Shown here: positions 20,121 through 57,976 of the stretch, piece after piece
Layout of the letters: the number at the start of each line of letters is the position of its first letter
Position numbering within the stretch: position 1 is the stretch's first letter
NCBI GenBank assembly: GCA_963847815.1
Contig: CAWKBF010000001.1
Location: 101,184 to 165,183, forward strand
Length of the DNA: 64,000 nucleotides
Direction of reading: 5' to 3'
DNA from: an uncultured Acidimicrobiia bacterium
GTDB taxonomy: Bacteria > Actinomycetota > Acidimicrobiia > IMCC26256 > JAENVU01
Made by a program: the position numbers and the translations under genes
Notes under the pieces: model-generated
What the model was told of the DNA's origin: nothing
Databases searched by the model: none
The model's input: only the letters and a program-made list of their open reading frames with translations

Positions 20121-20853
20121 TCAGGCCAGTCCGCGCAGCACTGCGGCGATCGACTCGGGATCGGTCACGGCGGGGATGTGACCACTGTCGAGAGGGATCC
20201 GCGTCGCGGGGCGCGGCAGGCGCGTCAACATCTCGTCCTGCAGTGCGGCCGGAATTGGCCGGTCGCGTTCGTTGAGGATGTAGGTCACGGGGACGTCGGC
20301 CGCGGTGGACCAGTGCACGGACTGGAAGTAATGGTTGACCGTGTCGGCGACGCTGCGCACCGAATCGAAGACGAACGCCAAGGTCTCGTCGTCGAGTGGG
20401 TCGCCGCCGTAGGTCTTGCGCAGCGCTTCGGGATCCGTCGGTGCCGGGAAGATGATCGGGTTGCCATCCGCGATCGCCGCCTCCGCCGCGAGCCGCAGGC
20501 CGTCGGCGTGGCGCGGCTGCATGCAGTCGAGACCGCACCCACCCTCGGGTGGGATCAGTGCAGCGCTCATCACGACCTGTGCGACGCGTCCGTCGAGCGC
20601 GGCGACGACACCGGGAACGACGAGACCGCCCGACGAGTGTGCGACGAGTGTGATGGGTCCGTCGAGGGAGGCGCCTTCGATGTCTGCGACCACCGACGCG
20701 ACTTCTTGGCCGACGGTGATCGTGCCGAGGTCCGTCGGATGCTCGCCGCGACCCGGGAAGGTCGACCGCGAGCACCGATCCTTCGAGCCGTGGGACCAGC
20801 CGGTCCCAGAAGCGACTCGTCGTCCCCCCGCCGTGCACCAGTACGTAGCTCAT
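20121..20853 (-). pseudogene. alpha/beta hydrolase, one frameshift
   Basis: The N-terminus MSYVLVHGGGTTSRFWDRLVPRLEGSVLAVDLPG is in the frame of ORF 19960..21093. The rest (RGEHPTDLGTITVGQEVASVVADIEG...LVAHSSGG) is in the frame of ORF 20121..20693. The junction is CCC GGG T CGC near 20751. Confidence 0.7.
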
Positions 20854-21011
20854 GGCCGGGATCCTCACACAGGCGGGGTTTTCGGTGCCGGATCGTGATG
20901 CCCCGGGGTCGGAATGGTCGACGACGCCGGACCAGAGACGTACCGTGACGAACGGCGGCTCCCGGTCATCGGCGGCGCGTAGCGGGTCGCTCGCAGAGGT
21001 AGGTTGCGCGG

Positions 21012-21785
21012 GTGACCCGTTCGACGGTGCGCTACGGGGACCAGCGCGGGCAGCGGGCGGAGCTGTGGATGCCGGAGGTGGCGTCGGCGGCACGGGATGT
21101 GCCCGTGGTGGTCCTGATCCACGGCGGGTTCTGGCGCGCCCAGTACACGAAGATCCTGATGCACAGGATGGCGCGGTCGGTCGTGGCGAGCGGTTGGGCG
21201 GCGTGGAACATCGAGTACCGCCGGCTCGGTCGGTTCGGCGGCGGGGGCGGATGGCCCGCGACGTTCACGGATGCGGCGGCAGCGATCGACGCGCTCGCCG
21301 ACCAACCCGGTCTGGACTTGAGCCGCGTCGCCACGTGCGGCCACTCGGCGGGGGGGCTGTTGGCGCTCTGGCTCGCATCGCGCCCGCGGCTGGGCGCCGA
21401 CGCGCCCGGCGGCCCGGTGCGAGTCCCCGTCGACATCGCGGTCTCCCTCGCCGGCGTGGCGGACGTCGTGGGGACCTACGAGCTCGGCGGGCCTGACGGA
21501 GTGGTGGCGCAGCTGCTCGGCGGGACCCCGGCGACGGTGCCCGAGCGCTATCAATGCACCTCTCCACTCGACCATCTCCCGCTCGGTGTCCCGCAGGTGC
21601 TCGTCCACGGAACCGCCGACACGACCGTGCCCCCGGCCATGAGCGAGGAGTACGCCACCACCGCCACGGTTGCCGGCGACGACGCGGTCTTCGTGCCGGT
21701 CCCCGGCGCGGACCATCGGGACATGTTGCGCGGTCCCGGTTGGGACGCCGCGGTCAAGCATCTCGAGCAGCGGTTCCGCGCCTGA
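21012..21785 (+). CDS. alpha/beta hydrolase (esterase/formamidase-like)
   Basis: Oxyanion motif VLIHGGFW and nucleophile elbow CGHSAGG. 257 aa. Confidence 0.8.
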   Translation: MTRSTVRYGDQRGQRAELWMPEVASAARDVPVVVLIHGGFWRAQYTKILMHRMARSVVASGWAAWNIEYRRLGRFGGGGGWPATFTDAAAAIDALADQPGLDLSRVATCGHSAGGLLALWLASRPRLGADAPGGPVRVPVDIAVSLAGVADVVGTYELGGPDGVVAQLLGGTPATVPERYQCTSPLDHLPLGVPQVLVHGTADTTVPPAMSEEYATTATVAGDDAVFVPVPGADHRDMLRGPGWDAAVKHLEQRFRA

Positions 21786-21848
21786 GATTGAAGGCGCGAT
21801 TGGTGGCCGGACCCTCAAGGGCGGCCATCGGATGCCGATCATCCAACC

Positions 21849-23876: not shown

Positions 23877-23958
23877 GTCACCCGTTTCGGATGACGACGG
23901 GGGTCACGGTCCGGTGCGACGATGGCGTCGGTCACACCGAGCTCGCGAAAGGAACCGG

Positions 23959-25377: not shown

Positions 25378-25390
25378 GCGCTGCCGCGCC

Positions 25391-26338: not shown

Positions 26339-27128
26339 GACGTGGTCGTCCTCGCGTCGAGAGCGATTCGGACTCTCGCGAGCTCAGTTTCGATTGCTGC
26401 GATCAAGGTCGCACCCTGGATGGGGTTGCCCGCGACGCCCTCGATCGCGAACGTCGAGAACAGCTCGGCGAGATGCCTCGCGCCGAGGTTCCCGCTCGCG
26501 CCGGAGAGCGTGTGCGCAGAGCGGAGGACGGCCGCGACGTCGTTGGCGCGCAGGCAGTCACCCATCTCGGCGATGTGCGCGTCGGCGTCGGCGAGGAACA
26601 GCTCCGCCAGCTGGCCCATGAGATCTTCACCCGTCGAATCGCCCAGCCGTTGGAGTCGCTCGACGATCGCGGGATCGAGCGCCGGTTCGTCGGCGTCGGA
26701 GACGTCCGCGTCCTCGTCGAGGGGATCGAACGCCTTGACGATCGGTTCGTCCGGCGCCCAGCGGGCCAGGCAGTCCGAGAGGTCGGCAGTGTTGAGTGGC
26801 TTGACGAGGAAGCCCTCCATGCCGGCGGTCCGGCAACGCGTGCGCTCCGCGTCGGTCGCGGAGGCGGTCACTGCGATGATCGGTGCGTGTCGGGATGCGC
26901 CGCGCCAGCGTCGAATCTCGCTCGCAACCAGGTACCCGTCGAGGACAGGAAGCTGGCAGTCGAGAAGGATCGCACGGTACGGCCGGGTCGCTGCCGCCTC
27001 GACTGCCGCGAGACCGTCAGTGACCACATCGACGTGATAACCGAGGTGCTCGAGCATCGCCCGCTCGACGGTCTGGATCACCGGGTCGTCTTCGGCCACC
27101 AGGACGTGACCCCACGCCGTCATGCGCG

Positions 27129-27132
<4 letters not shown>
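26335..27132 (-). CDS. response regulator receiver fused to Hpt phosphotransfer domain
   Basis: Start at ATG 27132, overlapping the kinase stop (ATGA at 27129-27132). Receiver VLVAEDDPV...ILLDCQLPVLDG...VKP. Hpt His motif SAHTLSGASGNLG. Confidence 0.85.
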
Positions 27133-30070
<2,938 letters not shown>

Positions 30071-30099
30071 GAGGCGGCCTCGGCAGGGACGGGGAGCCA

Positions 30100-30915
30100 T
30101 GGCTCGCAGCGCGGTGAGCAGCTCTGCGGTGTCGACGGCTTGGGTACGTAGTCGCTCGCGCCGGCATCGAGACAGCGCTGGCGCTCGCCGGCCATCACCT
30201 TGCCGGTGACTGCGATGATCGGCAGCGTCGTTGAACCCGTCCATGGACCGGATGGCGCGCATGGTCTCGTAGCCATCCATGACCGGCATCATGATGTCCA
30301 TCAGCACGATGTCGACCTCGGGCGTCTCGCTCCAACGTGGCGATGGCGTCGGCTCCACTCTCGGCGACGATGACTTCGGCCTGCCCCCGTTCGAGCAACG
30401 CGCGACAGCGCGAAGATGTTCCGGAAGTCGTCGTCGACCACGAGGATCCGGGTACCCCTGATCGCGCTCGCCTCGAGCAGCTGTCCGAGTCTCCGTGCTC
30501 CCGGAAGATCTTGGTGGTGGTGAGCGGGCGCGCTCGCTCGGAGGGACGCTCCGGCACGAGGGCCGATCGAGGAGCTTCGACCGGGTCCACCGGCTTCGGC
30601 GACGTAGTCGTTGGCTCCGGCGTCGATGCAGCGTTCGCGTTCTCCGGCTGCCGACTTGCCGGTGACCGCGATGATCGGGAGCGTCGGCGAACGATCGCTG
30701 CGACCGGACGGCGCGCATGGTCTCGTAGCCGTCCATGACCGGCATCATGATGTCCATCAGGACGATGTCGATGTCGTGACGCTGATCGAGGATCGCGATC
30801 GCTTCGGCGCCGCTGTTCGGCGACGACGACCTCGGCGCCGGCCGCGTTCGAGCAGTGCGGACATCGCGAAGATGTTCCGGAAGTCGTCGTCGACGAGGAG
30901 GATCGTCGTCCCCGC
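30100..30915 (-). repeat. tandem duplication of a receiver-domain coding module (period about 456 nt)
   Basis: 30254-30316 and 30710-30772 are 60/63 identical (ggcgcgcatggtctcgtagcc.tccatgaccggcatcatgatgtccatcag.acgatgtcga). A second shared block, cgcgaagatgttccggaagtcgtcgtcgac, occurs near 30407 and 30865. Confidence 0.8.
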
Positions 30916-31759
30916 GATGCGTCCGGCGGAGAGCCGATGTCGAATGCGGTCGGGTTCGGCTGTGGGATGGCTGCAGCGCCGTCGCCGTTGGTCGCGATGT
31001 GTGCGGGCGTCCGATCCGCCGTCGGCGTCGCAACGGTCGACGGAGCTGCACCATTGGTCGCGCTGTCGGTCGGGCCGATCGACGCGGTGCTCCGGTCGGG
31101 AGGAAGACGGTGAACGTGCTGCCCTGCACCGAGCGTCGCTGGCCACCGTGATCTCGCCGCCGAGCAGGCCGACGAGCTCGCGGCTGATCGAGAGGCCGAG
31201 GCCGGTGCCGCCGTAGAGGCGGGCGGTGGTGCCGTCGCCCTGGGCGAACGCCTCGAAGATCCGCAGCTGCTGCTCGTCGTCGATGCCGATGCCGGTGTCG
31301 CTGACCGAGAACGCGACGACCGACCGGCGCCGACGCAGTGACGTCCGTCGTCGGGCTCCAGCCGCCGTCGGCCAGGCCGACCTGCGATGCGGACCTCGCC
31401 GTTCTCGGTGAACTTGAACGCGTTCGCGAGCAGGTTCTTCAGGATCTGGCGGAGCCGTTGGGGGTCGGTGACGATCGTCGGCCGGGCAGTCGCGCGCGAG
31501 GTCGATCGAGAAGTTGAGGCCCTTGGCGAGCGCGACGTGCTCGAACTCGCGGACGAGCCCGTCCCGCAGCTCCTCGATCGAGACGTCGTCACATCTCGAC
31601 GGTGACGGTGCCCGACTCGGCCTTGGCCAGGTCGAGGATGCTGTTGAGCAGCTCGAGCAGCTCGTTGCCCGACGAGTGGATGACGCTCGCGTACTCGACC
31701 TGCGTGTCGGTCATGTTGTGGTCGGGGTTGTCCTCGAGCTGCTCGGCGAGGATCAGCAG

Positions 31760-31798
<39 letters not shown>

Positions 31799-32557
31799 GA
31801 TGAACTCGGACTTGTACTTCGACGAGACCGACGAGCTGGCCGGCCTTCTCCTCGACGAGCCGCTTGGACTCCTCGACCTCGCGGTTCTTGTGCTCGGCCT
31901 CGATGTTCTGCTCGGCGAGCTGCTTGGCCTGGCGGCCGAGGTCCTCGTTGGACTCGCGCAGCTCCTCCTGCTGCGAGCGGAGCTCCTCGGCGAGCGACTG
32001 CGACTGGATGAGCAGGGTCTCGGTGAGCGTGCTGGCCTCGATCGTGCTCATGACACGAGGCCGATGCTCTCGGTGATCGAGTCGAGGAACGCCTGGTGGG
32101 TGACGCTGAACGGCGAGAACGACGCGAGCTCGATCACCGCGCGCACCGATCCCTCGAACAGGACCGGGCAGCACGATGATGTTGAGCGGGCGTCGACGTC
32201 GCCGAGCCCGGAGTTGATCCGCACGTAGTCGCTCGGGCACCTCCGTGAGGAGGATCCGCTTCTTCTCCTTGGCGCACTGGCCGACGAGGCCCTCGCCGAG
32301 CCGGAACGAGGTCGAGAGGTGCTTGCGCTCCTCGTAGCCGTAGCCGGCCTGGAGCTCGAGCATCGGCTCGCCGCCGTCGGTCGACGCTGGTCATCGAGTA
32401 GAAGACCGGCGTGCTGGGCGGAGACGAGCGGCGCGAGCTCGGAGAGGATCATGCTCGACGTCGCCGCGAGGTCGCGCTGGCCCTGGAGCATGCGGGTGAA
32501 GCGCTCCCGGTTCGTCTTCAACCAGTCCTGCTCGACGTTCTCGCGCGTCGTCTCGCG

Positions 32558-33376
32558 GAGGTTGCGGATCATCTCGTTGAGCGTGTCCTTCAGGACCGCG
32601 ACCTCGCCGCTGGCCTCGACGCGCACCTGCCGGGTGAGGTCGCCCTCGGTCACCGCGGTGGCCACCTCGGCGATGGCTCGCACCTGGTTGGTGAGGTTGG
32701 CGGCGAGCTGGTTCACGTTGTCGGTGAGGTCCTTCCAGACCCCGCCGACCTCCTTCGACTGGGCCTGGCCGCCGAGCTTGCCCTCGACGCCCACCTCGCG
32801 CGCGACTCGGGTCACCTCGCCCGCGAACGCGTTGAGCTGGTCGACCATCGCGTTGACGGTGTTCTTCAGCTCGAGGAACTCGCCCTTCACGTCGATCGAG
32901 ATCTTCTTGCTCAGGTCGCCGTTCGCGACCGCGGTCGTGACCTCGGCGATGTTCCGCACCTGGCCGGTCAGGTTGCCGGCCATGAGGTTCACGTTGTCGG
33001 TCAGGTCCTTCCAGACGCCGCCGACCTCGATGGTGACCGCGGCGGCCTGGCCGAGCTTGCCTTCGGTGCCGACCTCGCGCGCGACCCGGGTCACCTCGGA
33101 GATGAACCCGTTGAGCTGGTCGACCATCGCGTTGATCGTGTTCTTCAGCTCGAGCATCTCGCCCCGCACGTCGGCCGACACCTTCTTGCTCAGGTCGCCG
33201 TCGGCGACCGCGCCGATCACGCGCTGCATCTCGATCGTCGGGCGCACGAGGTCGTCGATCAGGCTGTTGACCGACTCGACGCTGTCGGACCAACCCTGCG
33301 TCCAGCCGCCGAGCACCATGCGCTGCGAGAGCTGGCCCTGCTTGCCGACGACCTGGCTCACCCGCGCGAGCTCGGT
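32558..33376 (-). repeat. three in-frame 279-nt (93-aa) di-HAMP units
   Basis: gttgagctggtcgaccatcgcgttga.ggtgttcttcagctcgag recurs at 32831 and 33110. At protein level the units run [15 protein letters not shown]...[13 protein letters not shown]...GDLSKK...[13 protein letters not shown]. Confidence 0.85.
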
Positions 33377-33813
33377 GCCGAGCGCCTGGTTGGCGATGAT
33401 GACGTCGTTGAGCCCGTCGGCGACCTTGCCGGCGACGCCCGTCCAGTCGAGCGGCATGCGGGCGGTGAAGTCGCCGCCCTTGACCTTGGCGAGGACGCTC
33501 AGCAGGACCTTGCGCGTCGACGAGATCGTCGGCGATCAGCGACCGCGGGGTCGGGCATTGCGTGCCTCCAGAATGGAGGACCTGACGTCCAGGCGGGTCC
33601 GCTCGGACATCCGTTCCTCGGAGTCCCATCGGCTCGCCAGAACCGGAAACCTGATGGACGATTGGTGATCGATGATTCCGGCCGGGACGTATGACGGAAA
33701 TGGCGGCTACGTCGCGGTCAAATGCCCGGTGTGGGGGTGACGGTTGGGCGTCACCTGGCGGCGTGCTCGTCCCGCCCTCACGGTTCCATGACGTTCGGGA
33801 GCGACAATGGCGG

Positions 33814-34759
33814 ATGAGGCGCCGGCATCGGCCTCCTCGTCCTCGTCGTCGCCCTGCCCGCGATCGCCGCCGCCTCGTGCGACCCGCCGACCCGCCGAAC
33901 CCGCCGGCGAGCTGCGTCTCCGACCGGCGACGGCGACCCACCGGAACCTGCGGTTCACGGCTTCGCCCGGGGTCGCCGCCAACCTGCAGTCGCTCGATCT
34001 CTACCTCCCGGTGCGGCCGGCCGCGTGTGCGCCGGCGTCCCGGTGGTCGCGTACGTCCACGGCGGCGGGTTCATCAGTCGGGGACAAGGCCAACCAGCTC
34101 GCGGACAAGGTCAACCTCTTCACCCGCGCGGGTTGGGCGTTCGCGAGCCTCAACTACCGGCTGGTCGGTAGCCCCGGGCGCCGGGCCGACGAACGGCATG
34201 TACCCCGCGGCGGAACAGGACGTCGCGGCGGGCATCGGGTACCTCGTCGCCCACGCGGCGCAGTACCGCCTCGACCCGAAGACCGGATCATGCTGCTCGG
34301 CCATTCGTCCGGCGCGAACCTCGTCGCGCTGGTCTCGACCGACGGGTCGCTTCCTCCAGAGCGCCGGCCTCACGCTGCGACGACGTCAGTGTGCACCGCG
34401 CCGCTCGACACGACCTACGACATCCCGCACCAGGTCGCCGGCCGGCGGCACCAACGCGGCGATGTACCGCAACGCGTTCGGCGAACGACCCGGCGGTCTG
34501 GGTCAAGGGCTCGCCGAGCCGCAACGTCGCCGCCGGGAAGGGGATCCCGTCGTTCCACATCGTCACCCGCGGTGCGGCGAGCCGCGATCGCGGAAGCGCA
34601 GGCGTTCGGCACGACGCTGCGAGACGCCGGCGTCTGCGACCGACGTGCAGGTCGCCACCGGGCTCGACCCATGAGGAGGTGAACGACGCGGTCGGTCGCG
34701 CCGGCGACACGGTCATCACGCCGCCCCTGATGACCTTCTACCGGAGCTGTACCAGGTAG
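33814..34759 (+). pseudogene. secreted lipoprotein esterase (alpha/beta hydrolase), about 13 frame changes
   Basis: MRRR (ATG 33814), then a +1 shift at 33826 into IGLLVLVVALPAIAAASC (lipobox). Later pieces hop between all three frames: VPVVAYVHGGGF / GDKANQLADKVNLFTRAGWAFASLNYRL / GPTNGMYPAAEQDVAAGIGYLVAHAAQYRLDPK / RIMLLGHSSGANLVALV / GGTNAAMYRNAFG / NDPAVWVKGSPSRNVAAGKGIPSFHIVTRG / IAEAQAFGTTLRDAG / HEEVNDAVG...FYRSCTR stop. Confidence 0.7.
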
Positions 34760-35406: not shown

Positions 35407-36348
35407 TCACGACGACGAGCAACGGGGTGTCGATCCCGTGCGAGGACGGCACCGTGGTGACCGTGACGCCGATCGGCGGGCTCTTCGGCGCGACCGTCTC
35501 GGGCGTCGATCTCTCGAAGCCGCTCCATCCGTCGGTCGTCGCGGTGATCGACCAGGCGTTCGTCGCCTGGCACGTGCTGCGGTTCCCGGACCAGGACCTC
35601 ACGCCTGCGGACGAGGTGCGGGCCATGGGGTACTTCGACGACGGCGTCTACACCGAGCTCGACGGCGCGGCCGCGATCCCGGAGTAGCCGGCGATCCAGA
35701 TCGTCAGCAACATCGAGGTCGACGGCAAGGCCATCGGGTACACGAACAAGCGCGGCATGGAGTGGCATTCGGACCTGAGTGGCATGCCCGTGATGCCGAA
35801 AGCCTCGATGATGTACGCGATCGAGGTGCCGGAGACGGGGGGCGAGACGTACTTCGCGAACGGTCACCTCGCGTACGAGACGCTGCCCGTCCACGAGCGC
35901 CAGTACCTCGAAGGGCTGCGACTCCACCTACAGCTGGGTCACGCTCCAGAAGTGGCTCGCCGAGGCGAGCGGCACGTGGGAGCCGTACGACGCCGAGACC
36001 GCGGCGAAGTATCCGGACGTGGTGCGCCCACTCGTGCGCGTGCACCCGGTGACGGGTCGCAAGGCGCTCTTCTTCTCGATCGAGGAGATCATCGAGCTGA
36101 CCGGCCTCGACACCAAGGAGACGCGCGCGCTGCTCGAGCGGCTCATCGAGCACATGACGACGACGCCGCACGTCGTGTACCGCCACGACTGGACCGTCGG
36201 CGATCTGCTCGTCTGGGACAACCGGTGCCTGATGCACAGCGTCTGTGAGTACAACTACGAAGGCCAGCGACGGCTGATGCACCAGCTGAACGGCGCGGAC
36301 GACACGTCGGCGGAGCAGACGATCGCGGTGCTCCCGGTCAGCGTGTGA
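35403..36348 (+). pseudogene. TauD/TfdA family Fe(II)/2-oxoglutarate dioxygenase, in-frame TAG plus one frameshift
   Basis: GTG 35403 (VITTTSNGV...). TAG at 35685-35687 interrupts AAIPE*PAIQIVSNIEVDGKAIGYTNKRGMEWHSD in the same frame. A +1 shift near 35915 leads into STYSWVTLQKW...VVRPLVRVHPVTGRKALF...WDNRCLMHS (ORF 36019..36348). Confidence 0.75.
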
Positions 36349-37603: not shown

Positions 37604-37741
37604 CAGCACGAACGCGCGCGTCTGTTCACGCGTCGGTCATGACGGGTGAACGGGAGGGTCACGTGGGCAACAGGTCCGCGTTACCCGAGGTTCTCTCCAC
37701 CCACACGGCGGGGCAACGCTCGCTTCCTACCTTGACGCTTG

Positions 37742-38597
37742 ATGGCGCGTCGATGGAGCGAGGCAACCTGGCCCGAGCTGACTGACCTCGCCGAATCGCG
37801 CGAGGTCGGCCTGGTTCCGGTCGGCGCGACAGAGCAGCACGGTCCGCACCTCCCGACCGCGACCGACACGATCATCGCCACCGCGATGTGCGAGGCCGCG
37901 AGCGACCTGTGCGGCGCGCCGGTGCTGCCGGCGATCCCGCTCGGCGCCAGCTACGGGCACGGCACCGTGCTGCCGGGCACGATCTCCGCGACGCCCGGAT
38001 CTGCTGGCCGCGATCGTCCGTCAGTACGCGGAGTGGGCGGCCGCATCCGGGCTGACTGCGGCTGCTGTTCGTCAACGCCCACTTCGGCAACTCCGCGTCG
38101 CTCGGCGTCGCGACCGACCACCTTCGGCTGTTCCGGCCGGACCTGCGCGTCGGCGTCGTCGAGTGGTGGTCGCTGGACCCGCTCGTCGCGCGCCGAGATG
38201 ATCGCCGACGGCGACGACCTGCACGCCAACCGCGGCGAGACGTCGGTGATGCTCGCGGTCGCGCCCGAGCTCGTCGACCACGACGAGATGATGCGCGCCG
38301 ACGACCCGGACCGCACTGCGGACCTGGTGTTCCGCTACACCGCGCCGAGCCTCTCGACCAACGGCGTGACGGGGCGGCCGTCGGAAGCCACGCCGGAGCT
38401 GGGTCGCATGCTCCTCGAGCGGACCGCCGACGCGCTCGCCGGGATGGTCGAGCGCGGTCGGGTCGAGGAGCCGCCGCTCGGACCGGCGCCCTTTCCCACG
38501 CTCACCATGCCGCCGGCCGTCGCGCCCACCACGCCGCGCGGCACCCGACACGAACCGCCAGAACGCAAACGGGCAGACCACCACCGGGAGGAACTGA
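37742..38597 (+). pseudogene. creatininase-family amidohydrolase, at least 3 frame changes, C-terminus unresolved
   Basis: MARRWSEATWPELTD...VGATEQHGPHLP. The expected middle (DLLAAIVRQYAEWAAASGL / LLFVNAHFGNSASLGVATDHLRLFRPDLRVGVVEWW) lies in the other two frames between about 37997, 38060 and 38192. The net shift is 3 nt, so ORF 37739..39157 stays open. The only nearby stop is TGA 38595-38597 in another frame. Confidence 0.65.
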
Positions 38598-39966
38598 TGG
38601 ACACCGTCCAGGACGTCACCGAAGAGCACCGCAAGCTCGCCGCGGACCTGGGTGCGCAGGGGGTCGAGTACGTGGTCGGCGCCTACGTCGACATCCTCGG
38701 GCGCTCGAAGTCCAAGGTCGTCCCGATCGAGCACCTGCCGAACCTGCTCGCGGGCTCGGAGCGGTACACGCCGCGGGGCATCGGCGACCTCGGGCAGATG
38801 ACGCCCAACGAAGACGAGTGCGTCGCGATGCCGGACCTTTCGACGTTGCGGATCATGCCGTGGGACCGGCGGTTCGCGTGGATGGCCGCCGACCTCCTCT
38901 TCGGTGGCACCGAGCCGTTCGCGCACTGCACCCGCTCCGTCCTCAAGCGCGAGGTCGACCGTGCCGCGGGCCTCGGCTTCGGGTTCAACCTCGGGGTCGA
39001 GACCGAGATCTACGCGTACAAGCCGGATGCGATCGAGCGCGACCGGCTACCTCGGCCCGATGGCGCCGAGCGGCTCGATGAAGCCGACGCCCGCCTACGA
39101 CGTCGAGGCGACGATGGACGCGATGCCGTTCCTCGGCCCGATGGTCGAAGGCGATGAACGAGACCGGGTTCGGAGTCTTCAGCTTCGACCACGAAGGTGG
39201 CGACGCGCAGTTCGAGTTCGACTTCGACTTCGCGCCCGCACTCGAGATGGCGGACAAGATCACGTTCTTCCGGCTGATGGCGAAGCAGATCGCCAAGCAG
39301 AACGACCTCGCGGTCACCTTCATGCCGAAGCCGTACACCGAGGCGTGGGGCTCGGGCCACCACTTCAACATGAGCCTCGTCGATCTCGAGTCGGGGCAGA
39401 ACCTCTTCCGTGACGCTGACGGCCCTCGCGGCTGGAGCAAGACGTGTTACTCGTTCCTGGCCGGGATCCTGAAGCACTCCGCCGCGATCGCGGCGATCGC
39501 GACTCCGACGGTCAACTCGTACAAGCGGATGGTGCCGCGGCTCGCGGACGGGTGCATCTCGTGGGCGCCGGTGTGGGCTGCGTACGGCGACAACAACCGT
39601 TCGTGCATGCTCCGCCTGCCGCACAACCGGCCTGCGATCGAGAACCGCGCGGTGGACTCCGCCGCGAACACGTACCTCGCGTCGGCGTTCATGCTCGCCG
39701 CGGGGCTCGAAGGGATGGCAGACAGCCTCGATCCCGGCGAGCCGATCGAGGACATGACCTACGACTGGTCGAAGCGCAGTGACGGGGTGCGCCTGCCGCG
39801 CAACCTGCTCGAGGCGATCGACGCGTTCGAGGCCGACCCACTCACCCACGAGGTCTTCTCGCCGCAGTTCGTGAGCGCGTACACCGAGATGAAGAACGAC
39901 GAATGGCAGCTGTACCACTCGCAGGTCAGTGAGTGGGAGCGCGAGCACTACCTGAGCCTCTTCTGA
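38597..39966 (+). pseudogene. glutamine synthetase-like gamma-glutamyl ligase, 2 frameshifts
   Basis: ATG 38597 follows GGGAGGA. MDTVQDVTEEHRKLAADLGAQGVEYVVGAYVDILGRSK... Then +1 at 39044 (GAC C GGC) into GYLGPMAPSGSMKPTPAYDVEATMDAMPF, and +1 at 39150 into ORF 39154..39966 (MNETGFGVFSFDHEGG...NSYKRMVP...). Confidence 0.75.
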
Positions 39967-44850: not shown

Positions 44851-47009
44851 TCAAGCGTGGTGGCAGGCGACGACGTTTCCTTCGGGCTTCGCCACGAGCA
44901 CCGGAGACTTCTCGAGGCAGATCTCAGTCACCCGAGGACACCGCGGCGCAAACGTGCACCCGACCTTGACCCCGATCGCGCTCGGCGGCTCACCCGCGAG
45001 CGTGGGGGAGAGGCGACCCGGCTCGGTCGTCGGGCTCGCGTCGATCAGCCCCTGGGTGTACGGGTGCTCCGGGTTCTCGAACAGCTTGTCGGCCGGCGCC
45101 TGTTCGACGATGCGGCCCAGGTACATCACTGCGACCTCGTCTGCGATGCGCCGGGCTGCCGCGAGGTCATGGGTCACGACGAGGAGTGCGACACCGAGGT
45201 CGTCTCGTAGCGACTCGAGCAACGTGAGCACGCGTACGGCGAGCGAGGCGTCGAGCGCGCTCACCGGCTCGTCGCACACGAGGAGCTTGGGCTCGGACGC
45301 GAGGGCGCGGGCGATGACTGCACGTTGGCGCTGACCCCCGGAGAGGTCACGCGGGCTTCGAACGCGCGGCGCGCCGGTCCAGACCCACCCGGTCCAGGTA
45401 GTCCATCGCCCGCCGTTCGCGCTCGGCCTTGTTGACGCCGAGGGCACGGAGGCGCTCCTCGACCTGCAGCCCGATCGCCATCCAGGGTGTGAGCGAGCTG
45501 CCGGCATCCTGGAAGACGAGCTGCGGGCGCCCACCTGTCGGTGCCCAGGCAACCTGACCCTCATCGGGCTGCAGCAAGCCGGTCGCAATTCGTAGCGTCG
45601 TCGTCTTCCCGCACCCACTCTCACCGACGAGCGCGACGGAGCCGCGAGTCGGGACCCGCAGGGAGACGTCGTCGACGGCGAGCAGCTTCGAGTTCTCGCC
45701 GCGCCCGCCGACCGGGAACGTCTTGGTGACGTGGTTCAGCTCGAGTGCGATCCCGGTGATGCTCATTGTGTCCTTGGACGGAGGCAGCATCGACACAGGG
45801 ATCGTGGGCGCGGAGACCGTGATGGTGACCGGGGTGTTCGCCACGGTCATCGGGTGCAGGCAGGCGACGCCACCGAGCAGACCGTCGGGTCGCGCCAAGA
45901 GCTCCGGCGGAGCCACCTCGCAGTCCTCCTCGGCGCGTGAGCATCGCGGTGCGAACGCGCAACCGGGCGGCAACGCCATCGGGTTCGGCGGGTTGCCCGG
46001 CATCGGGTCGCTGGCGGCCGTCACCCCGTCGACCGAGAGGCGAGCCGCAAGCAGTGCCTTCGTGTACGGGTGCGACGGCGCTTCGAGCACGCTCGCGGCC
46101 GGTCCTGATTCACAGACCCGACCTGCGTACAGCACGACGATCCGGTCGGCGATCGAAGCGGCGACGCCGAGGTCGTGGGTCACGAGCAGCACTGCGCAGC
46201 CGTGCTCGCGGCGCAGACGGTCGAAGAGGAGCACGACCTGCGCCTGAACGCTCACGTCGAGCGCGGTCGTCGGCTCGTCGGCGATCAGCAACCGCGGCGC
46301 CGCCGTGATCGTCCTTCGCGACGCCGACGGGGAAGTCGAGCACCGCGGCGTCAGTGGTGAGATCGAGGACCGCACCGTTCCCGTTGGTCGTCGTGCCGCT
46401 CGTCTCGGCTTCGTGCTTACGGCGTCCGAACCGGGAGCGCTTCTCGGGCTTCGCGGCGTCGAGCGTCCCGTGACCGCCCAGGGCCATCGCGATCATCACG
46501 CGCTGACGGAGACCGCCGGAGAGCTGGTGCGGGTACTGGTTCATGCGCTTCTCGGGGTCCGGCACACCGGCCTCGGCGAGCTGGCGCAGGGCCCGGTCTT
46601 TGTCGATGCCGCGCTCGAGGAGCTGGCGGCCGATCTTCATCGTCGGGTTCAACGACGTGAGCGGGTCCTGGAAGACCGCGCCGAGCAGCTCCTGGCGGAC
46701 CTTGCGGCGCGTCCTATCGCCGCCGTTCACCATGTCGACGCCCGCGACCTCGACGTGACCGCTCGTCTCCGGTCGACCGCTTGCGGGAAGGAGTCCGAGC
46801 AGCGACATCCCGAGCACGCTCTTGCCCGACCCGGACTCGCCGACGAGTGCCACCACCTCGCCGGCGCGGATGTCCAGGTTCACGCCGCGCAGCGCGCGCA
46901 CGATGCCGTCGCCGGCCTTGAACGAGACGTGCAGATCCTGAACGCTGGCGACGACTTCGGAGTCCAACGTGGCCGGATCCATGATTGGTGGGGTCTCGGT
47001 GAGACTCAC
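44851..47009 (-). pseudogene. fused tandem ABC ATPase (DppD-DppF type), 2 frameshifts
   Basis: First half: Walker A GESGSGKS, signature LSGGLRQR, Walker B LLIADEPT. Second half: GESGCGKT, LSGGQRQR, LLVCDEPV. There is no stop between the halves. Frame junctions lie near 46300-46320 and 45349 (GCG T GAC). Each half ends in a 4-Cys motif. Confidence 0.75.
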
Positions 47010-48037
47010 TAGGCCATCCTCACCTTCTTCTCGACGCGTTGCTCAGTGCGAAGACGGGGGTCGGCGACGAGCTGGAGGATGTCGACGACCGCATTGATGA
47101 CGACGTACGCGATCCCGAGCACAAGGGTGATCCCGATGATCGCCGGGAAGTCCGCCTGCTGGATCGATTGGTTCGTGTACAGCCCGAGACCGGGCCACGC
47201 GAAGACGAGCTCGATGACGACGACCCCCGCGAGCAGCAGACCGACCTGGAGGCCCGCCATCGAGAGTGCCGGACCGGACGCGTTGCGCAACGCGTGCTTC
47301 CACACGACCATGCGCTCCGAGAGCCCCTTGGCGCGAGCGGTGCGCACGTGGTCCTGGCGCATGACGTCGAGCAGGGAGCTGCGCAGCACCCGGCCGATGG
47401 CGACGGCCGGGCCCAGTGCGAGCACGAAGGCGGGCAGCAGGAGGTGTCGCACGGCGTCCCACCATTGCTGCGGGTTGCCGTGGAGCAGGGAGTCGAGGAG
47501 CAGGAAGCCCGTCGGGCCCGTGTCGTTGTATTGCGAGCTCATCCGACCGGACGCGGGCAACCAGTTCAGGTTCCGGTAGAAGAGCAGGATCAGGAGGATG
47601 GCGCCGAAGAACGCGGGTGCCGACGACAGGAACATCATCGTCACCCGCGCGGTGCCGGATCCTCGTCCGCCGTGCGCGGACCAGAGCCCGAGGATGATGC
47701 CGAGGACGCCGGCGAGAAACGCGGCGGTGAACGCGAGCTCCAGGGTCGCGGGCGCGAACTTCGAGATGTCCTCGAGGACCGGGCGCCGGGTCCGGAGGGA
47801 TTCACCGAAGTCGCCCTGCACGACCTTGCTCAGGAAGCTGACGTACTGCGTGGGCAGCGGATCGTTGTAGCCGAGCTCCTGGCGCTTCGCCTCGACGACT
47901 TCCGCGCTCGCCTGCGCGCCGACGGACGCGCGCACCGGGTCCGCCGGGAGGACTGCGGCGATGATGAAGACGACGAGGGTCAGGACCATGAGCACTGCGA
48001 GCAGCGACCCGATTCGGACCAGGATCATGCGGCGCAT
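47009..48037 (-). CDS. ABC transporter permease (DppB-like)
   Basis: Intact 342-aa ORF (MRRMILVRIGSLLAVL...) with typical binding-protein-dependent transport inner-membrane component features. The start overlaps the upstream stop. Confidence 0.85.
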   Translation of the reverse strand: MRRMILVRIGSLLAVLMVLTLVVFIIAAVLPADPVRASVGAQASAEVVEAKRQELGYNDPLPTQYVSFLSKVVQGDFGESLRTRRPVLEDISKFAPATLELAFTAAFLAGVLGIILGLWSAHGGRGSGTARVTMMFLSSAPAFFGAILLILLFYRNLNWLPASGRMSSQYNDTGPTGFLLLDSLLHGNPQQWWDAVRHLLLPAFVLALGPAVAIGRVLRSSLLDVMRQDHVRTARAKGLSERMVVWKHALRNASGPALSMAGLQVGLLLAGVVVIELVFAWPGLGLYTNQSIQQADFPAIIGITLVLGIAYVVINAVVDILQLVADPRLRTEQRVEKKVRMA

Positions 48038-48910
48038 CAGCCCTCCACAACATCTCGGACGGCGTCACCGGCAAGGTTGCCGACGAACGCAAGGATGAAC
48101 ACACCGAGCGCCGGGAACACCGGCACCCACCACGAGGTGAACAGGTAGGAGAGGCCTCGGGAGGACATCGCGCCGAGCTCGCGCGGCCGGTGGAGGAGAG
48201 CCGAGGCCGAGGAACGAGAGTCCGGCGAGGGTGAGCAGCAGCGCGCCGATGTCGAGTGAGGCCGTGACGAGGATCGCGCCGAACGTTCCCGGCACGACGT
48301 GCTTGAACGCGACGCGCAATCGACTCGCGCCGCCCATGCGCGCCGCTTCCACGTGACTTCTGGACGCGATCGACTTCACCTCGCCGCGCACGATCCGTGC
48401 GTAGAACGGCCACCAGACGATCGCGACCGCGATGAGCGTGTGCTGCAGGGTCGGGCCGAGTGCGGAGACGACGGCGAGCACCAGCAACGGACCGGGCATC
48501 GACAGGAACACGTCGGTGATGCGCATCAACACGTTGTCGATCCAACCGCCGCTCATCCCGGCGATCAGGCCGATCGTCCCGCCGATGAGGATGCCCGAGG
48601 CGATGACGAGGAAGGCCGAGAACCAGCTCGTCCGCATGGCGAGCAGGGTGCGACTGAACACGTCACGGCTCTGCTCGTCGATGCCGAACCAGTGTTGACC
48701 CGACACTCCGGTGAACGAGCGCCCGACGCTGTCGGTCTCTCCGTACGGCACGATGAGCGGGACGAAGATCAGGAAGACGGTCAGCAGCAGGAACGCGGTG
48801 ATCGCGACCAGCTCGAGCTTGCCGAGTCGCCGGAGCTTGCCGCTGAGCACGGCGGTGCTCGGCATCGACGGCCACCAGCGGCGCCGCAGCGGCGGTGAGA
48901 TGACGGCCAT
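48037..48910 (-). pseudogene. ABC transporter permease (DppC-like), one frameshift near the 3' end
   Basis: ORF 48065..48910 is canonical up to LSFLGLGSPPPA. A +1 shift near 48187 restores PRELGAMSSRGLSYLFTSWWVPVFPALGVFILAFVGNLAGDAVRDVVEG, with the stop at 48037-48039 overlapping the next ATG. Confidence 0.75.
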
Positions 48911-49102
48911 CAGCCCACCCCCCCAGGTGACACTTCCGGGACCGATGGGGTGCGACGCGGACCACGAAGCAGCATGAACCCGACCTTAGAAACGAAGAGT
49001 TGCGGACCCGTTCCTCGCGCTTGGCGTAGGCATGAAGTCCGCCTGTGTGGTTTCTTTCGCACCGTCGACAACGCGCGTCAGGAAGTGCACAGGCGCGCGA
49101 CA

Positions 49103-51799: not shown

Positions 51800-51805
51800 C
51801 GGCCC

Positions 51806-53499: not shown

Positions 53500-53600
53500 G
53501 CAGCCGAACCTATGGCGGCTCCGTGTCGCGCCGGTGCCTCGAGTGTGAAGAGCCGATTTCACCGTCCCGTCACAGCGGGGTAACTCGCCTGGTTCGTACG

Positions 53601-54422: not shown

Positions 54423-54468
54423 GGTCGCCTCGACTGAGGTCAGATCGGAGGGAGGAGACGAGCCATGA

Positions 54469-55065
54469 TCACGGCTCGCGCCATCCGGTCGGGAGCTCGG
54501 TGCCGGGTTCGAGCGGAGCGGGGAGCAGCGCGAGCGCGGCCTCGTCACCGAACTCGATCCCGGGTTGCCACGCGGTGCCGTCCCAGTGTGAATATCGGGC
54601 CGCGATCGCGCCACCGGTCGCACGGGTGTCAACGACGACCGACGCGTGCTCGCCGACGCGCACCGCGATCCCGCCGACGGTCACGGCTGCCAGCACGGGG
54701 CCGTCGCCACCGGGAAGCTTCTCCCATCGTTCCGAGTACCTGATCGTACGACCGTCTTCGACGTACTCACCCTGCTCGATCATCGCATCGCCGTCGTAGG
54801 AGATCAGGCCGACGTCCCCGCCCTCGTCCTCGCCGTCGCTCTCGACGTACGAGTCGATCGCGTGTGCCCACGTCAGGTGCGGCTCCACCCACGACGTGGT
54901 GCCGGCGAAGGTCATGTCGCTCGCGAACCCACCGGGCCCGCGCACGTCGACATAGACGGAGCCGGCCTCCACCCACACCGTCGGGCCCGCCGTGACGTCG
55001 ACCTCACCGTCGACGATCGCCTCACTGCGGTTCCACGCGGCGATGAACTTCTCCGGCAGGCTCAT
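54469..55065 (-). CDS. hypothetical protein, translationally coupled to the Rieske gene
   Basis: ATG 55065 overlaps the restored Rieske stop (ATGA at 55062-55065). 198 aa, acidic, beta-rich looking (MSLPEKFIAAWNRSEAIVDGEVDV...). I recognise no family. Confidence 0.6.
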   Translation of the reverse strand: MSLPEKFIAAWNRSEAIVDGEVDVTAGPTVWVEAGSVYVDVRGPGGFASDMTFAGTTSWVEPHLTWAHAIDSYVESDGEDEGGDVGLISYDGDAMIEQGEYVEDGRTIRYSERWEKLPGGDGPVLAAVTVGGIAVRVGEHASVVVDTRATGGAIAARYSHWDGTAWQPGIEFGDEAALALLPAPLEPGTELPTGWREP

Positions 55066-56138
55066 CGGAGCATCCCGAGCACGTGCTCGTGGAACGCCGT
55101 GATCGGAGCTTCGTGCGCCTGGGCCAGCGGCCCGACTTCGAACGTCGGCGACGCCAGCCCCTGCTGGATCCGTTCGCAGGCGTCGATGTCCTCGTCGATG
55201 AAGCTGCGCGCCGCGCTCGAGCAGTGCTTCGGCGTCCGCCCCGGGTTCGGCTCGCATCCTCACCTCGATGATGCTCTCGGTCGGACCGATCGGGACCACC
55301 GCATAGGACATGAAGAACTCCGCGTTCGCGGCCATGAGGATGTTGGGAAAGATCAGGTGGGCGCCGACGCCGTGGATGTCGCGCTCGTCGAGGTGCTCGA
55401 TTGGCTTGGTGCCCTGCGCCAGGCGGGAGTGGGTGAGATCGGGTGAGCGCATCGGTTCGAAGCTGGCCCAGTTCCTGCCGAGCTGATGGTGCTCGAACTT
55501 GTGGTGATCGAGCTCCCCGAGGCTCTTCTGGTGCAGGTACCAGAGGTGGTACACGTCGATGTGGTTCTCGATCAGCAGCTTCCAGTTGCAATGCGCGACG
55601 AGATCGGCGGACGCGACGAGCGGAAGCAGACCGGGTCGGTGGCTGCCGATGTACCTCGGCAGCGCGTCGAGCGCGTCCGTCGAGTGATGCGGTCGGATCG
55701 GGATGCGCGAACACCATCCCTTCCCACACGCCGACGGCCGACGGCAGCAGGCCCCAGTTCTCGAGCCGGAGGTCGGGGAACTGGTCCTTGCGCTGCGGGA
55801 CGACGCGCAGCGCACCATCGAGCGCGTACCGCCAGTCGTGGTAGAAGCAGCGGATCCCGTCCGGGGAATGGCCGCACCCGTCGACCATCACCATCCCGCG
55901 GTGCCGGCACAGGTTCTGGAACGCCCGGAGCTGTCCGTCCTCGCCCCGCACGACGACGATTGGGACGCCGCCGACCGTGCCCGTGATGTAGTCGCCGACC
56001 TCGGTGAGCGAGTCGGTCGTGCCGATCAACGCCCACGAGCGCGGCGAAGAGGCTGCGCTGCTCTCGCTCGTACCAGCCCTGCTCGTCGTACGCGAGTCGA
56101 GGTAGCAGGAAGCGGCTCTCGTCGATCGTCGTCACCAT
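55062..56138 (-). pseudogene. Rieske [2Fe-2S] oxygenase alpha subunit, 3 frameshifts
   Basis: MVTTIDESRFLLPRLAYDEQGWYEREQRSLF, then +1 near 56041 into SWALIGTTDS...CRHRGM...CFYHDW...VFAHPDP, +1 near 55678 into DALDALPRYIG...CNWKLLIENHIDVYHLWYLH, and +1 near 55203 into FIDEDIDACERIQQGL...HEHVLGMLR stop. Paralogue of the gene at 36503..37603. Confidence 0.75.
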
Positions 56139-56265
56139 GAGGTCAAGAACACCCCAGGGAGATTTCAGCGTCGGGCCTCGACTGTTGCCGCACCATCACT
56201 GCAAGGTGACGGGTCTCTGGATCTCAAGGGTGTGCACCGTGTCGCAGCGACGGACGGCAGAATCT

Positions 56266-57976
56266 TCACGTCGGCAGCGAAGCGAGGTAGGAGCGCCAGC
56301 TGCCGAAGGAGGTGACATCGGGCGCGATGGTGGCGGCCCAGTCTTCACAGAGGAAGCCGGGGTGGGTCGTGCCGTCGTCGAGCTCGACCGTGCCGATGGT
56401 GAGCGGCGACGGCACTCCGGTCACGAACGCGCCGAAGCCGTCGATCGGCAGCTCCCAGAGCTCGGCCGCGATCGCGCTGCCACCGTCGGCAACCCGGACC
56501 AGGCCCGGTTTCGGAGGCGTGGTCGGCAGTGCATGGAGCCGGTACGCGGAAGCGGTGTGCACGTCGGCGACGAAGCAGCCACCGCGGTCGGTCAGCTGAT
56601 GGTTGAGCGGCTGGCCCCGGAGGTGCGCGCCGACGACCACGATCGTCGTGGTGCCGCTCCATGGCGGGCGCGGTGGATCGGGCTCGCCGAGGAATCGCGC
56701 GGCGGCCGCCGCGACGACCGGATCTGCAAACGCGGGTGCGAGGAACGTGATCCCGAACGGCACTCCGTCGCCGCGCCTGCCGGCGGGCACCGAGGACGCG
56801 CAGAGATCGAGGATGTTGCAGCCGTTCATGAAGCGGCCGAGCTTCGCGTTCTCGCCGATCGGATCCGCGGCGACTGCGGTGAGCGTCGGCGCGCTGCCGA
56901 TCGTCGGGATGGCGATCACGTCGACCATGTCCCACACGGGAGCGAACGCCGCGGCGTGAGCCCGAACCCGGTCGAGGTCACCGGCGAGCTGATGCGCGGG
57001 GAGGGTGCCCGCGGCAGCAATGAGAGAGGCGACCGTCGGATCCGCGCCATCCGGGTGCGTGGCCAGGAACTCGCCGACCGCGTCGTACCGCTCGGCGATC
57101 AGCGCGCTGCCGTAGAGCAGGTCGCCGACGTCCAGGTACGGACCGAGGTCGATCTCGACCGATGGGCCGAGCCTCGCGATCTCGATCACCGCCGCAGCCC
57201 ACGCCGCCGCGGCTTCGACGTCGAGGGTCGCGAGCTGGTCGGGATGGGGAAGGCCGACGCGCAGTGACGCGGGCGGGACGACCGCGGTCCCGCTCGGGGG
57301 AGTGCGGCTCCAGGGATCGGTCGGGTCCGGTCCCGCGGCGACGGCGAGCACGGTTGCGGCGTCGGCGACCGTCCGGGCGAAGACCGACACGCAGTCAAGG
57401 GAGCGACACGCCGGGACGACGCCGGCGTTGCTCACCAACCCGCGGCGTGGGCTTCAGGCCGACGATGCCGTTGAGCGCCGCGGGCACGCGACCGGAACCA
57501 GCGGTGTCCGTCCCGAGCGCGACATCCACTTCACCGAGCGCGACCGCAATCGCCGACCCCGAAGAGGACCCACCCGAGATCCGGTCGGGGACGATGGCGT
57601 TGCGACACGCGCCGTACGGCGACCGGGTCCCCACCAGACCGGTTGCGAACTGATCGAGGTTGGTCTTGCCGATCACCACCGCTCCGGCGTCGGTCAGGCG
57701 CGCGACGGCCGTCGCGGACTGGTCCGGCCGTCGATCCAAGGCGGGATGTGCCGCCGTGGTGGGGAGTCCGGCGACGTCGATGTTGTCCTTGATCGCGATC
57801 GTGATGCCCGCCAAGAGAAGGTCCTCGCCGGCGTCGAGTCGTTCCGCCACGTCGGTCGCGTCGGTCGCGACGTCCTCGGCCGGGCGAATGGTGATCCACG
57901 CTTCGGGGCGAACACTGCTTGCGACCGCGTCGACCGCCTGCGCCGCGGCGGCAACCGGATCGGGCTCGACCCTCAC
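56266..57976 (-). pseudogene. allophanate hydrolase (amidase signature family), one frameshift
   Basis: GTG 57976 overlaps the carboxylase stop (GTGA). Amidase signature GGSSSGSA. Junction ACG C CGC near 57445 joins ...GIVGLKPT to [22 protein letters not shown] (ORF 56266..57438). Confidence 0.8.

Follow-up and report, generated by a model that had tools for sequence, protein, structure and literature searches.

Clustered, insertion-type frame changes in a contig of an uncultured Acidimicrobiia-like actinobacterium are probably long-read consensus errors rather than gene decay

Introduction

In a window of 64,000 nucleotides, the whole stretch analysed here, changes of reading frame break up a signalling operon as well as parts of a catabolic island. 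The window is part of a single contig (1,496,251 bp) from an uncultured Acidimicrobiia-like actinobacterium. Have these genes decayed in the organism, or did the frame changes arise in the assembly?

Under neutral decay several to many substitutions accumulate per indel, and natural bacterial indels are deletion-biased and located at repeats or homopolymers. In the mass pseudogenisation of reductive evolution, as in Mycobacterium leprae and recent host-restricted pathogens, many adjoining genes are interrupted yet recognisable, and in this respect the window is similar. It is also similar to sequences with long-read (Nanopore or PacBio) indel errors, in which single-base indels fragment conserved genes. 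The density of such errors follows local consensus support, they are fixed by polishing, and indel-driven frameshifts have been documented in long-read-type assemblies at modest coverage (PMC9262707). The proovframe preprint and PMC12007338 address this problem too, polishing or reference-guided frame repair being the remedy.

Materials and methods

Frame changes were located by three independent methods. The first was a frameshift-aware protein-to-DNA alignment, guided by the intact orthologues of L001, a short-read Acidimicrobiia metagenome-assembled genome (MAG). The second was a frame tracker (3-periodic Markov/Viterbi) that had been trained on the clean genes of the window. The third was the search for Pfam domains whose pieces lie in different frames but adjoin in profile coordinates. 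The indel spectrum of kinase A was obtained from a nucleotide alignment with five short-read orthologues. For the comparison of sequencing technologies, the worst segment of kinase A was used, namely its GAF-HK segment of 435 codons (1.3 kb).

Results and discussion

About 60 reading-frame changes over 12-14 genes were found in the window, on which the three methods agreed. A first-pass annotation had reported about 60 changes and two in-frame stops in 14 genes. The alignment, the tracker and the Pfam splits together gave 60 lesions, or 61 changes, in 12-14 genes; only one in-frame stop could be read directly in the sequence of the whole damaged set, the TAG at 35685. The +1 type accounted for 54 of the 61 changes (binomial p = 4e-10), in line with the five-sixths share of one-base additions estimated at first pass. 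The frame tracker recovered the switches found by alignment and placed single switches or small groups near 35930, 37994, 38056, 38191, 39038 and 39149, and near 45350, 46290, 48198, 55202, 55677 and 57442. All six sites that had been quoted as extra bases proved exact, and removal of the named base restored motifs. The affected genes and the clean segments of the signalling operon are listed in Table 1.

Table 1. Features of the damaged region, with their frame changes and the evidence for them (window coordinates)
Feature	Position	Strand	Frame changes and evidence
Alpha/beta hydrolase (Abhydrolase_6)	20124..20870	-	Extra T at 20751; downstream piece covers profile 35-216
REC-GGDEF	25394-26338	-	Pfam; no internal frame change (frame tracker)
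REC-Hpt	26338-27264	-	Pfam; no internal frame change (frame tracker)
Hybrid histidine kinase B, REC-PAS-HisKA-HATPase-REC-REC-Hpt	27129..30083	-	Full architecture by Pfam on corrected protein
Histidine kinase A, HAMP array-GAF-HisKA-HATPase-REC-REC	30073..33680	-	Start approximate; full length by Pfam on corrected protein
Clean HAMP-array segment within damaged zone	32408..33511	-	Zero frame changes (alignment and frame tracker)
BD-FAE / Abhydrolase_3 esterase	33818..34741	+	11-14 changes at 33.8-34.67 kb, mostly +1 type
TauD-family dioxygenase	35463..36345	+	TAG 35685-35687; one +1 change near 35930-35950
Creatininase	37736..38500	+	+1 at about 37994, 38056 and 38191 (frame tracker); end approximate
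Glutamine-synthetase-like gene	38500..39963	+	+1 at 39044 and 39150, both sequence-verified; start approximate
Two oligopeptide-type ABC ATPases	44854..47042	-	One +1 each, at about 46290 and 45349
ABC permease	48040..48985	-	Probable +1 near 48198 (frame tracker); evidence weaker than in the other rows
Rieske ring-hydroxylating oxygenase alpha subunit	55065..56035	-	+1 near 55677 and 55202
Allophanate hydrolase	56269..57978	-	Extra C at 57445; Amidase 26-170 and 169-442 in two frames

The lesions were distributed very unevenly, as had been described before. Three patches totalling 4.4 kb (28.74-29.59, 30.03-32.41 and 33.51-34.67 kb) held 47 of the 60, which corresponds to 10.7 lesions per kb; in the rest of the window the density was 0.22 per kb. 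Another 13 single lesions were scattered outside the patches, and the first 27 kb of the window contained one. Counted in 1-kb bins, the lesions had an index of dispersion of 6.4, and the maximum among 20,000 random placements was 1.96. The patches also disregard gene borders, in agreement with the earlier description: gene junctions are crossed, a clean block of 1.1 kb lies within one gene, and one patch (33512-33562 plus the esterase lesions) extends over a divergent intergenic region.

Two of the damaged genes are histidine kinases. In kinase A, aligned from 33577 to 30073, 28 frame changes were found: 25 at 30103-32407, the approximate number previously given for 30.07-32.41 kb, and three further +1 lesions at 33512-33562, upstream of the HAMP array, which had escaped the first reading. 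After correction the protein has no in-frame stop and shares 80% identity with that of L001. Kinase B, aligned from 30083 to 27144, displayed five lesions at 28740-29590, as counted before for 28.76-29.60 kb. A sixth may lie at 30029, and all are of the +1 type (alignment to L001 and frame tracker). Both ends of this kinase had been described as intact; this is correct for the C-terminal end, where 1.6 kb are clean, while the N-terminal end may carry the lesion at 30029. The HAMP array between the damaged stretches was indeed clean, and the probability of zero lesions in these 1.1 kb is about 7e-6 at patch density. It is also the most conserved segment, with 93% amino-acid identity to L001. 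Such a clean array amid a dirty zone was counted as a point against the artefact reading. The REC-GGDEF and REC-Hpt genes are the clean downstream members of the operon.

The number of sites bears on the idea of recoding, in which the frame would be restored in vivo through transcriptional slippage or by programmed frameshifting of the ribosome. The preserved downstream coding sequence would agree with such recoding, and nothing more does: about 60 sites lie in heterogeneous contexts without a shared slippery motif, up to 28 of them in one gene, and the orthologues are uninterrupted. So many sites of such varied context effectively refute recoding, and its probability is negligible.

In the alpha/beta hydrolase, removal of the T at 20751 joins the frames as AVDLPG followed by RGEHPTD, and the orthologue in L081 is intact. 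The esterase motifs HGGG and GHSSG lie in different frames (low-penalty frame tracking), and the stitched protein matches the Abhydrolase_3 profile (Pfam) at 2-207 of 210; the 13 lesions reported earlier for 33.83-34.67 kb fall within the range given by the tracker. In the TauD-family gene, successive pieces cover profile positions 2-60, 81-159 and 166-264. The creatininase gave two stretches of Pfam match, interrupted where the frame is shifted, and since its three +1 changes add up to a whole codon, a long open reading frame remains. In the glutamine-synthetase-like gene, Gln-synt_C 80-344 was matched in the last frame only. ABC_tran (2-96, then 104-136) and oligo_HPY are split across frames in the two ABC ATPases, where removal of the T at 45349 restores the ABC signature LSGGQ, and in the main frame of the permease the BPD_transp_1 match breaks off at profile position 149 of 184. 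The oxygenase gene is spread over three different frames, one with the Rieske domain, one with Ring_hydroxyl_A 11-149 and one with Ring_hydroxyl_A 152-206. Three lesions had been attributed to this gene, of which two were found, since the change of frame at 55066 marks the border of a gene. In the allophanate hydrolase, removal of the C at 57445 restores GLKPT followed by RGLVS.

In order to distinguish decay from error, the frame-corrected genes were compared with their relatives. It had been claimed that the damaged genes keep their full length and catalytic motifs, and both statements stood: the corrected proteins gave near full-length Pfam matches to GAF_2, HisKA, HATPase_c, two REC, PAS, Hpt and Abhydrolase_3, and all catalytic motifs were readable. 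The corrected dirty segments were 85, 63 and 64% identical to L001 at the amino-acid level. None of the orthologues with which these segments were compared had a higher identity, apart from L022 with 65% in REC-REC. The first-pass annotation had proposed alignment to the orthologous loci of relatives and dN/dS on the frame-corrected genes. In the alignment the L001 orthologues were intact; dN/dS was 0.24, 0.28 and 0.20 in the three segments, inside the orthologue range of 0.18-0.50. Thus, relative to intact orthologues, neither excess amino-acid divergence nor raised dN/dS was seen in the damaged segments. The nearest DNA relatives were 84-87% identical; no same-species sequence was found. In the protein search the source itself was the only match at 100%; the G6PD of the window occurs once in the protein collection, on the 1,496,251-bp NCBI/ENA contig, and the next relative is 94% identical.

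The indel spectrum of kinase A against the five short-read orthologues comprised 17 insertions of one base and 5 of two bases, while deletions other than of whole triplets were absent. The inserted base was equal to a neighbour in 8 of the 22 cases, and none of the 22 lengthened a run of more than two identical bases. Insertions of one or two bases, mostly without an adjoining identical base, are unlike replication slippage. They also differ from the textbook Nanopore error, a homopolymer deletion: the window shows insertions outside homopolymers, with a bias of 22 to 0, and the homopolymer location that is the classical signature of Nanopore R9, 454 or Ion data was absent, no long runs being involved. 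The textbook Nanopore site being the homopolymer, the position of the lesions was counted against the artefact reading.

These data bear on whether the insertions are real, the conserved phosphorelay operon and parts of the catabolic island having been inactivated very recently in this lineage by a mutational process with an insertion bias. The deposited sequence does contain the lesions, and the TAG at 35685 looks like a genuine nonsense codon. Decay, though, implies many substitutions per indel, so that about 25 indels in 2.3 kb should be accompanied by many more substitutions and several stops; kinases A and B carry 34 indels, and the alignment to the L001 orthologues showed no in-frame stop in either, no excess substitutions and a normal dN/dS. 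Moreover, a gene is dead after its first frameshift, and 28 clustered hits beside a spotless 1.1-kb segment would therefore need a special mechanism. Real decay leaves a bias towards deletions, a raised dN/dS, nonsense codons, truncated genes and lesions located at repeats. The window is without such a pattern: 22 insertions stand against 0 deletions, mostly without an identical neighbouring base, all genes are full length, and there is one stop. Recent inactivation is thus very unlikely. More improbable still is its specific form, the fresh loss of a widely conserved HAMP-array phosphorelay operon, together with a dozen catabolic genes, in an uncultured soil actinobacterium of Acidimicrobiia-like type. 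The loss would go back to a localised, insertion-only mutational process other than slippage, such as error-prone repair or a polymerase event that affects patches of kilobase size.

The occurrence of damage was found to follow the sequencing technology. The GAF-HK segment contains 13 frameshifts in the window. Among short-read metagenome contigs, 59 of 60 were without a frameshift in this segment and the remaining one had a single frameshift; none of 11 short-read MAGs (the L001 reference left out) was frameshifted. In contrast, 5 of 12 Nanopore-only MFD MAGs carried 2-7 frameshifts. Accordingly, 1 of 71 short-read assemblies was affected versus 5 of 12 Nanopore-only MAGs (Fisher p = 1.5e-4). 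The orthologous genes were damaged likewise in the Nanopore-only MFD MAGs L026, L022, L014 and L030. The recurrence of this type of damage in unrelated long-read MAGs, but in only 1 of 71 short-read assemblies, speaks against real inactivation. In L026 and L022 non-homopolymer single-base insertions were found as in the window; homopolymer location is therefore not defining for all long-read errors. The MFD MAGs were assembled with Flye and polished by one round of Medaka only (PMC12313526).

The normal identity and dN/dS, the insertion-only spectrum and the dependence on technology strongly support the artefact reading already preferred at first pass. Judged from the sequence comparisons, the frame changes are probably consensus errors of a long-read assembly rather than gene decay (probability about 0.9). 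The single 1,496,251-bp contig of an uncultured lineage suggests a long-read source, presumably a long-read MAG. Spurious insertions of one or two bases would have been left behind in the long-read (single-molecule) metagenome assembly and would be gathered in a few kilobase-scale stretches of poorly supported consensus. Locally, the cause may have been low depth, a mixture of strains or a segment left without polishing.

Two more specific origins of the errors were considered. In the first, the dirty patches would be long-read gap-fills or bridges of a hybrid assembly, or stretches beyond the reach of short-read polishing, the clean part being short-read-derived or polished. The roughly bimodal contrast, with about 1% indels within patches and about 0.02% elsewhere, and the sharp edges ignoring genes fit this origin, and the conserved HAMP array could draw more metagenome reads. 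The sequence carries no sign of hybrid assembly, though; the 13 scattered lesions suggest a generally imperfect consensus without a clean short-read backbone, and Nanopore-only MAGs are comparably uneven between adjoining genes (in L026, 13 frame changes in gene A versus 1 in gene B). This origin is rather unlikely. The second would be a consensus collapsed from co-occurring strains, in which both alleles are kept by the graph consensus at polymorphic sites and produce false one-base insertions, the patches being strain-variable regions. It would account for insertion-only errors at non-homopolymer sites and for the clean, highly conserved HAMP array, and microdiversity is a reported problem of soil long-read MAGs (PMC12313526). 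Nevertheless, conservation is also good in the damaged GAF-HK segment, which is thus not obviously strain-variable, and this inferential scenario is doubtful.

If the lesions are consensus errors, the finding is a data-quality flag. Its biological weight is small, as the underlying genes appear ordinary and intact. Automated annotation would call a dozen pseudogenes or fragments, among them the large signalling operon, the allophanate hydrolase, the ABC transporter subunits and the oxygenases, thereby understating signalling and catabolic capacity and inflating pseudogene counts. Frame correction or re-polishing is needed before annotation or evolutionary claims on the locus. The case also suggests that errors of long-read MAGs can be strongly insertion-biased, non-homopolymeric and confined to kilobase patches, in which case a genome-wide quality score may mask locally very poor sequence.

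The genes of the organism are most likely intact, and most likely comprise a nitrogen-compound catabolic island and a conserved operon for a phosphorelay, made up of the HAMP-array kinase, the hybrid kinase, REC-Hpt and REC-GGDEF. The synteny of the phosphorelay operon is shared with L001, L022 and L026. The corrected locus matches, with its four genes, the multi-HAMP (poly-HAMP) hybrid histidine kinase phosphorelay operons of Actinomycetota, and compared with these the corrected genes have nothing unusual, which points to an ordinary content beneath the errors. A minor observation concerns the TAG at 35685: it is a substitution, not an indel, hence a less typical long-read consensus error, and was counted against the artefact reading.

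Detection of the frame changes

In the list of open reading frames, the stretch from 27 to 35 kb already appeared as overlapping fragments in all frames. The frame damage described in the first-pass annotation was reproduced by three independent tests, namely frameshift-aware alignment, a periodic Markov/Viterbi tracker and the splitting of Pfam domains, with a total of 60 lesions across 12-14 genes. The six sites quoted there were exact, and deletion of the named base brought back the motifs (e.g. GLKPT joined to RGLVS, and LSGGQ). Three more lesions were found at 33512-33562, while the frame switch at 55066 turned out to be a gene border.

The frameshift-aware protein-to-DNA aligner was guided by two intact orthologous proteins of L001, a short-read Acidimicrobiia MAG. 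Gene A, a histidine kinase, displayed at least 28 frame changes, 25 of them net +1, and gene B, a hybrid kinase, displayed six, all of the +1 type. No in-frame stop was detected in either gene by this alignment. The linkers before each REC domain of gene A (about 30540-30590 and 30950-31090) are Arg/Pro-rich even after frame correction, which is typical of a wrong frame and suggests that a few more frameshifts are probably hidden there.

A GC3 frame plot was too noisy, and a 3-periodic second-order Markov model with Viterbi decoding, trained on the clean genes of the window, was used instead. This tracker recovered the same switches as the aligner. Isolated switches were located near 35930, 37994, 38056, 38191, 39038, 39149, 45350, 46290, 48198, 55202, 55677 and 57442, and 11-14 switches appeared in the esterase at 33.8-34.67 kb once the switch penalty was lowered. 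Since tblastx against all fetched loci gave no orthologue of the esterase region, the evidence for its lesions comes from frame tracking and Pfam. Domains divided between frames, with contiguous profile coordinates, were Amidase, ABC_tran (twice), Ring_hydroxyl_A, TauD, Gln-synt_C and Creatininase.

In the creatininase gene, three +1 changes within 200 bases (37994-38191) sum to one codon. The 472-codon reading frame therefore stays open and the damage is invisible to a gene caller, with about 65 codons out of frame between the changes. Two in-frame stops had been claimed and one was seen, a TAG at 35685-35687 in a TauD-family gene (IPE-stop-PAIQIVSN), probably a Tyr codon (TAC) altered by substitution. 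It is the sole non-indel lesion and the likeliest of all to be a real mutation.

Table. Coordinates of the features in the window and of the orthologous operons in relatives.
Sequence	Feature	Position	Strand	Content
Window	G6PD	13695-15173		glucose-6-phosphate dehydrogenase
Window	Phosphorelay module, four genes	25394-33680		HAMP array-GAF-HK-REC-REC, REC-PAS-HK-REC-REC-Hpt, REC-Hpt, REC-GGDEF
Window	Gene A	33577 to 30073	minus	HAMP array-GAF-HisKA-HATPase-REC-REC
Window	HAMP array of gene A	32408-33511		1.1 kb
Window	Gene B	30083 to 27144		REC-PAS-HisKA-HATPase-REC-REC-Hpt
Window	SBP_bac_5 gene	42293-43160		solute-binding protein
Window	SBP_bac_5 gene	50774-51641		solute-binding protein
Window	Small ORF	54486-55066		downstream of Rieske oxygenase
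Window	Urea amidolyase-type cluster	56269-63044	minus	two DUF1989 genes, 1190-aa urea carboxylase, allophanate hydrolase
L026	Two-kinase operon	9908-13324
L014	Two-kinase operon	9938-15473
L030	Two-kinase operon	4136-10633
L022	Two-kinase operon	9896-16289

Spectrum and clustering

The claimed bias was evident, as 54 of 61 changes were of the +1 type (p = 4e-10). When the DNA of gene A was aligned with five short-read orthologues, 17 single-base and 5 two-base insertions were private to the window and non-triplet deletions were absent; an alignment with seven orthologues concurred. The inserted base was the same as the adjacent one in 8/22 cases and none of the 22 insertions lengthened a run of more than two identical bases, by which homopolymer slippage was rejected. 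Natural bacterial indels are deletion-biased and repeat-associated. An insertion-only spectrum at mostly non-repeat sites is thus unlike both these and replication slippage.

The lesions were very unevenly distributed, as the first-pass annotation had also noted: 47 of them fell within 4.4 kb (10.7 per kb), compared with 0.22 per kb in the rest of the window. The index of dispersion was 6.4, against a maximum of 1.96 over 20,000 simulations. The HAMP array carries no lesion although it lies between two patches of about 10 per kb, an outcome with a probability of about 7e-6 at patch density. With 93% amino-acid identity to L001, the array is also the best-conserved stretch of gene A, and one may speculate that it is clean through recruiting more metagenome reads. 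Internal repeats were rejected as the cause of the patches: the damaged zone has none apart from its two REC domains, which are 80% identical, and the HAMP repeats, which are 78% identical and form the clean part.

Search for decay

Every catalytic motif could be read through in the frame-corrected proteins, and Pfam matches were near full-length (GAF_2 2-135/136, HisKA 2-66/66, HATPase_c 1-109/111 and Abhydrolase_3 2-207/210, together with two REC domains, PAS and Hpt). The three damaged segments were 85, 63 and 64% identical to L001, compared with 70-78, 53-62 and 43-65% for the orthologues; the sole orthologue above the window was L022, a Nanopore-only MAG, in the REC-REC segment (65% vs 64%). 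The dN/dS values of the frame-corrected segments (0.24, 0.28 and 0.20) were within the orthologue range of 0.18-0.50. Motifs, Pfam, identity and dN/dS thus gave no sign of decay. At neutral indel-to-substitution ratios, about 25 indels in 2.3 kb would be accompanied by far more substitutions and several stop codons, and neither was present. Real, very recent pseudogenisation is therefore improbable, as neither the lack of decay nor the insertion-only spectrum at mostly non-repeat sites fits it. Programmed frameshifting or recoding is excluded, since the sites are too many and too heterogeneous.

Relation to sequencing technology

No same-species copy of the locus was found in the genome-collection and metagenome scans, where the best matches showed 92-94% (HAMP array) and 83% (GAF-HK segment) amino-acid identity; these relatives were used as controls and to guide the alignments rather than to confirm lesions base by base. 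Queries with the HAMP-array protein mostly matched multi-repeat HAMP proteins, and close relatives could not be identified in that way. The contig of the closest G6PD relative (L081) was only about 87% identical to the window in DNA.

With the same aligner, short-read MAG orthologues gave 0-5 events per gene, many of them close together. In the GAF-HK segment of gene A (435 codons), which is well conserved, the window had 13 events, while none was found in 59/60 short-read metagenome contigs (one event in the remaining one) and in 11/11 short-read MAGs other than the reference L001. The segment was thus free of frameshifts in 70/71 short-read assemblies. The exceptions among the 60 contigs, a single frameshift in L157 and a single in-frame stop in L123, represent either true variants, which are rare, or errors of assembly.

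Several of the control relatives are Microflora Danica MAGs, which were obtained from Nanopore reads only, assembled with Flye and polished by one Medaka round (PMC12313526). The segment was frameshifted in 5/12 Nanopore-only MAGs (2-7 each) vs 1/71 short-read assemblies (Fisher p = 1.5e-4). The proovframe preprint and PMC12007338 reportedly address the same long-read frameshift problem. Over both kinase genes in four of these public MAGs, which belong to related Actinomycetota, 23 frameshifts were counted in L014, 14 each in L026 and L030, and 12 in L022. L026 and L022 resembled the window, with single-base insertions outside homopolymers and almost no deletions, whereas L030 was biased toward deletions. 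Insertion-biased, non-homopolymer, uneven errors are thus documented for such assemblies in this gene family. Indels left behind at modest coverage are a well-known source of frameshifts (PMC9262707).

The observed spectrum, clustering, absence of decay and link to sequencing technology support the artefact that the first-pass annotation had preferred over mass pseudogenisation. The frame damage most likely has no biological basis, and the lesions are attributed, with a probability of about 0.9, to consensus errors of a long-read assembly. The very long contig suggests, without proving it, a long-read metagenome assembly as the origin. We infer the platform and the local cause: errors would concentrate where the consensus was weakly supported, possibly because depth was locally low, because a segment had been left unpolished or was gap-filled, or because a strain mixture had collapsed. 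The finding can serve as a quality flag for the sequence record.

Gene content of the region

The 64-kb window has a GC content of 66-71%. Its clean genes include those for glucose-6-phosphate dehydrogenase, urea carboxylase, peptide-type ABC transporter proteins, Rieske and TauD oxygenases and a GGDEF-EAL protein. In a large protein collection, the G6PD of the window was present exactly once, on a contig of 1,496,251 bp, and its next relative was 94% identical; the matches with names were Acidimicrobiia or Actinomycetota MAGs, with Rhabdothermincola (78%) as the closest named isolate. The host is an uncultured Acidimicrobiia-like actinobacterium.

The genes beneath the errors form an ordinary conserved phosphorelay operon. 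The four-gene module is syntenic in several MAGs of Acidimicrobiia and Actinomycetota (L001, L022, L026). It adjoins a catabolic island with creatininase, a GS-like enzyme, a C26 peptidase, Rieske and TauD oxygenases, peptide-type ABC transporters and a urea carboxylase/allophanate hydrolase cluster, in which only the allophanate hydrolase carries a lesion. The two SBP_bac_5 genes, on opposite strands, share 67% DNA identity and represent paralogous peptide/nickel-type transport systems within one island. The small ORF has an odd Pfam match (E = 3e-9) to HRI1, a yeast family, which is probably due to chance or composition.
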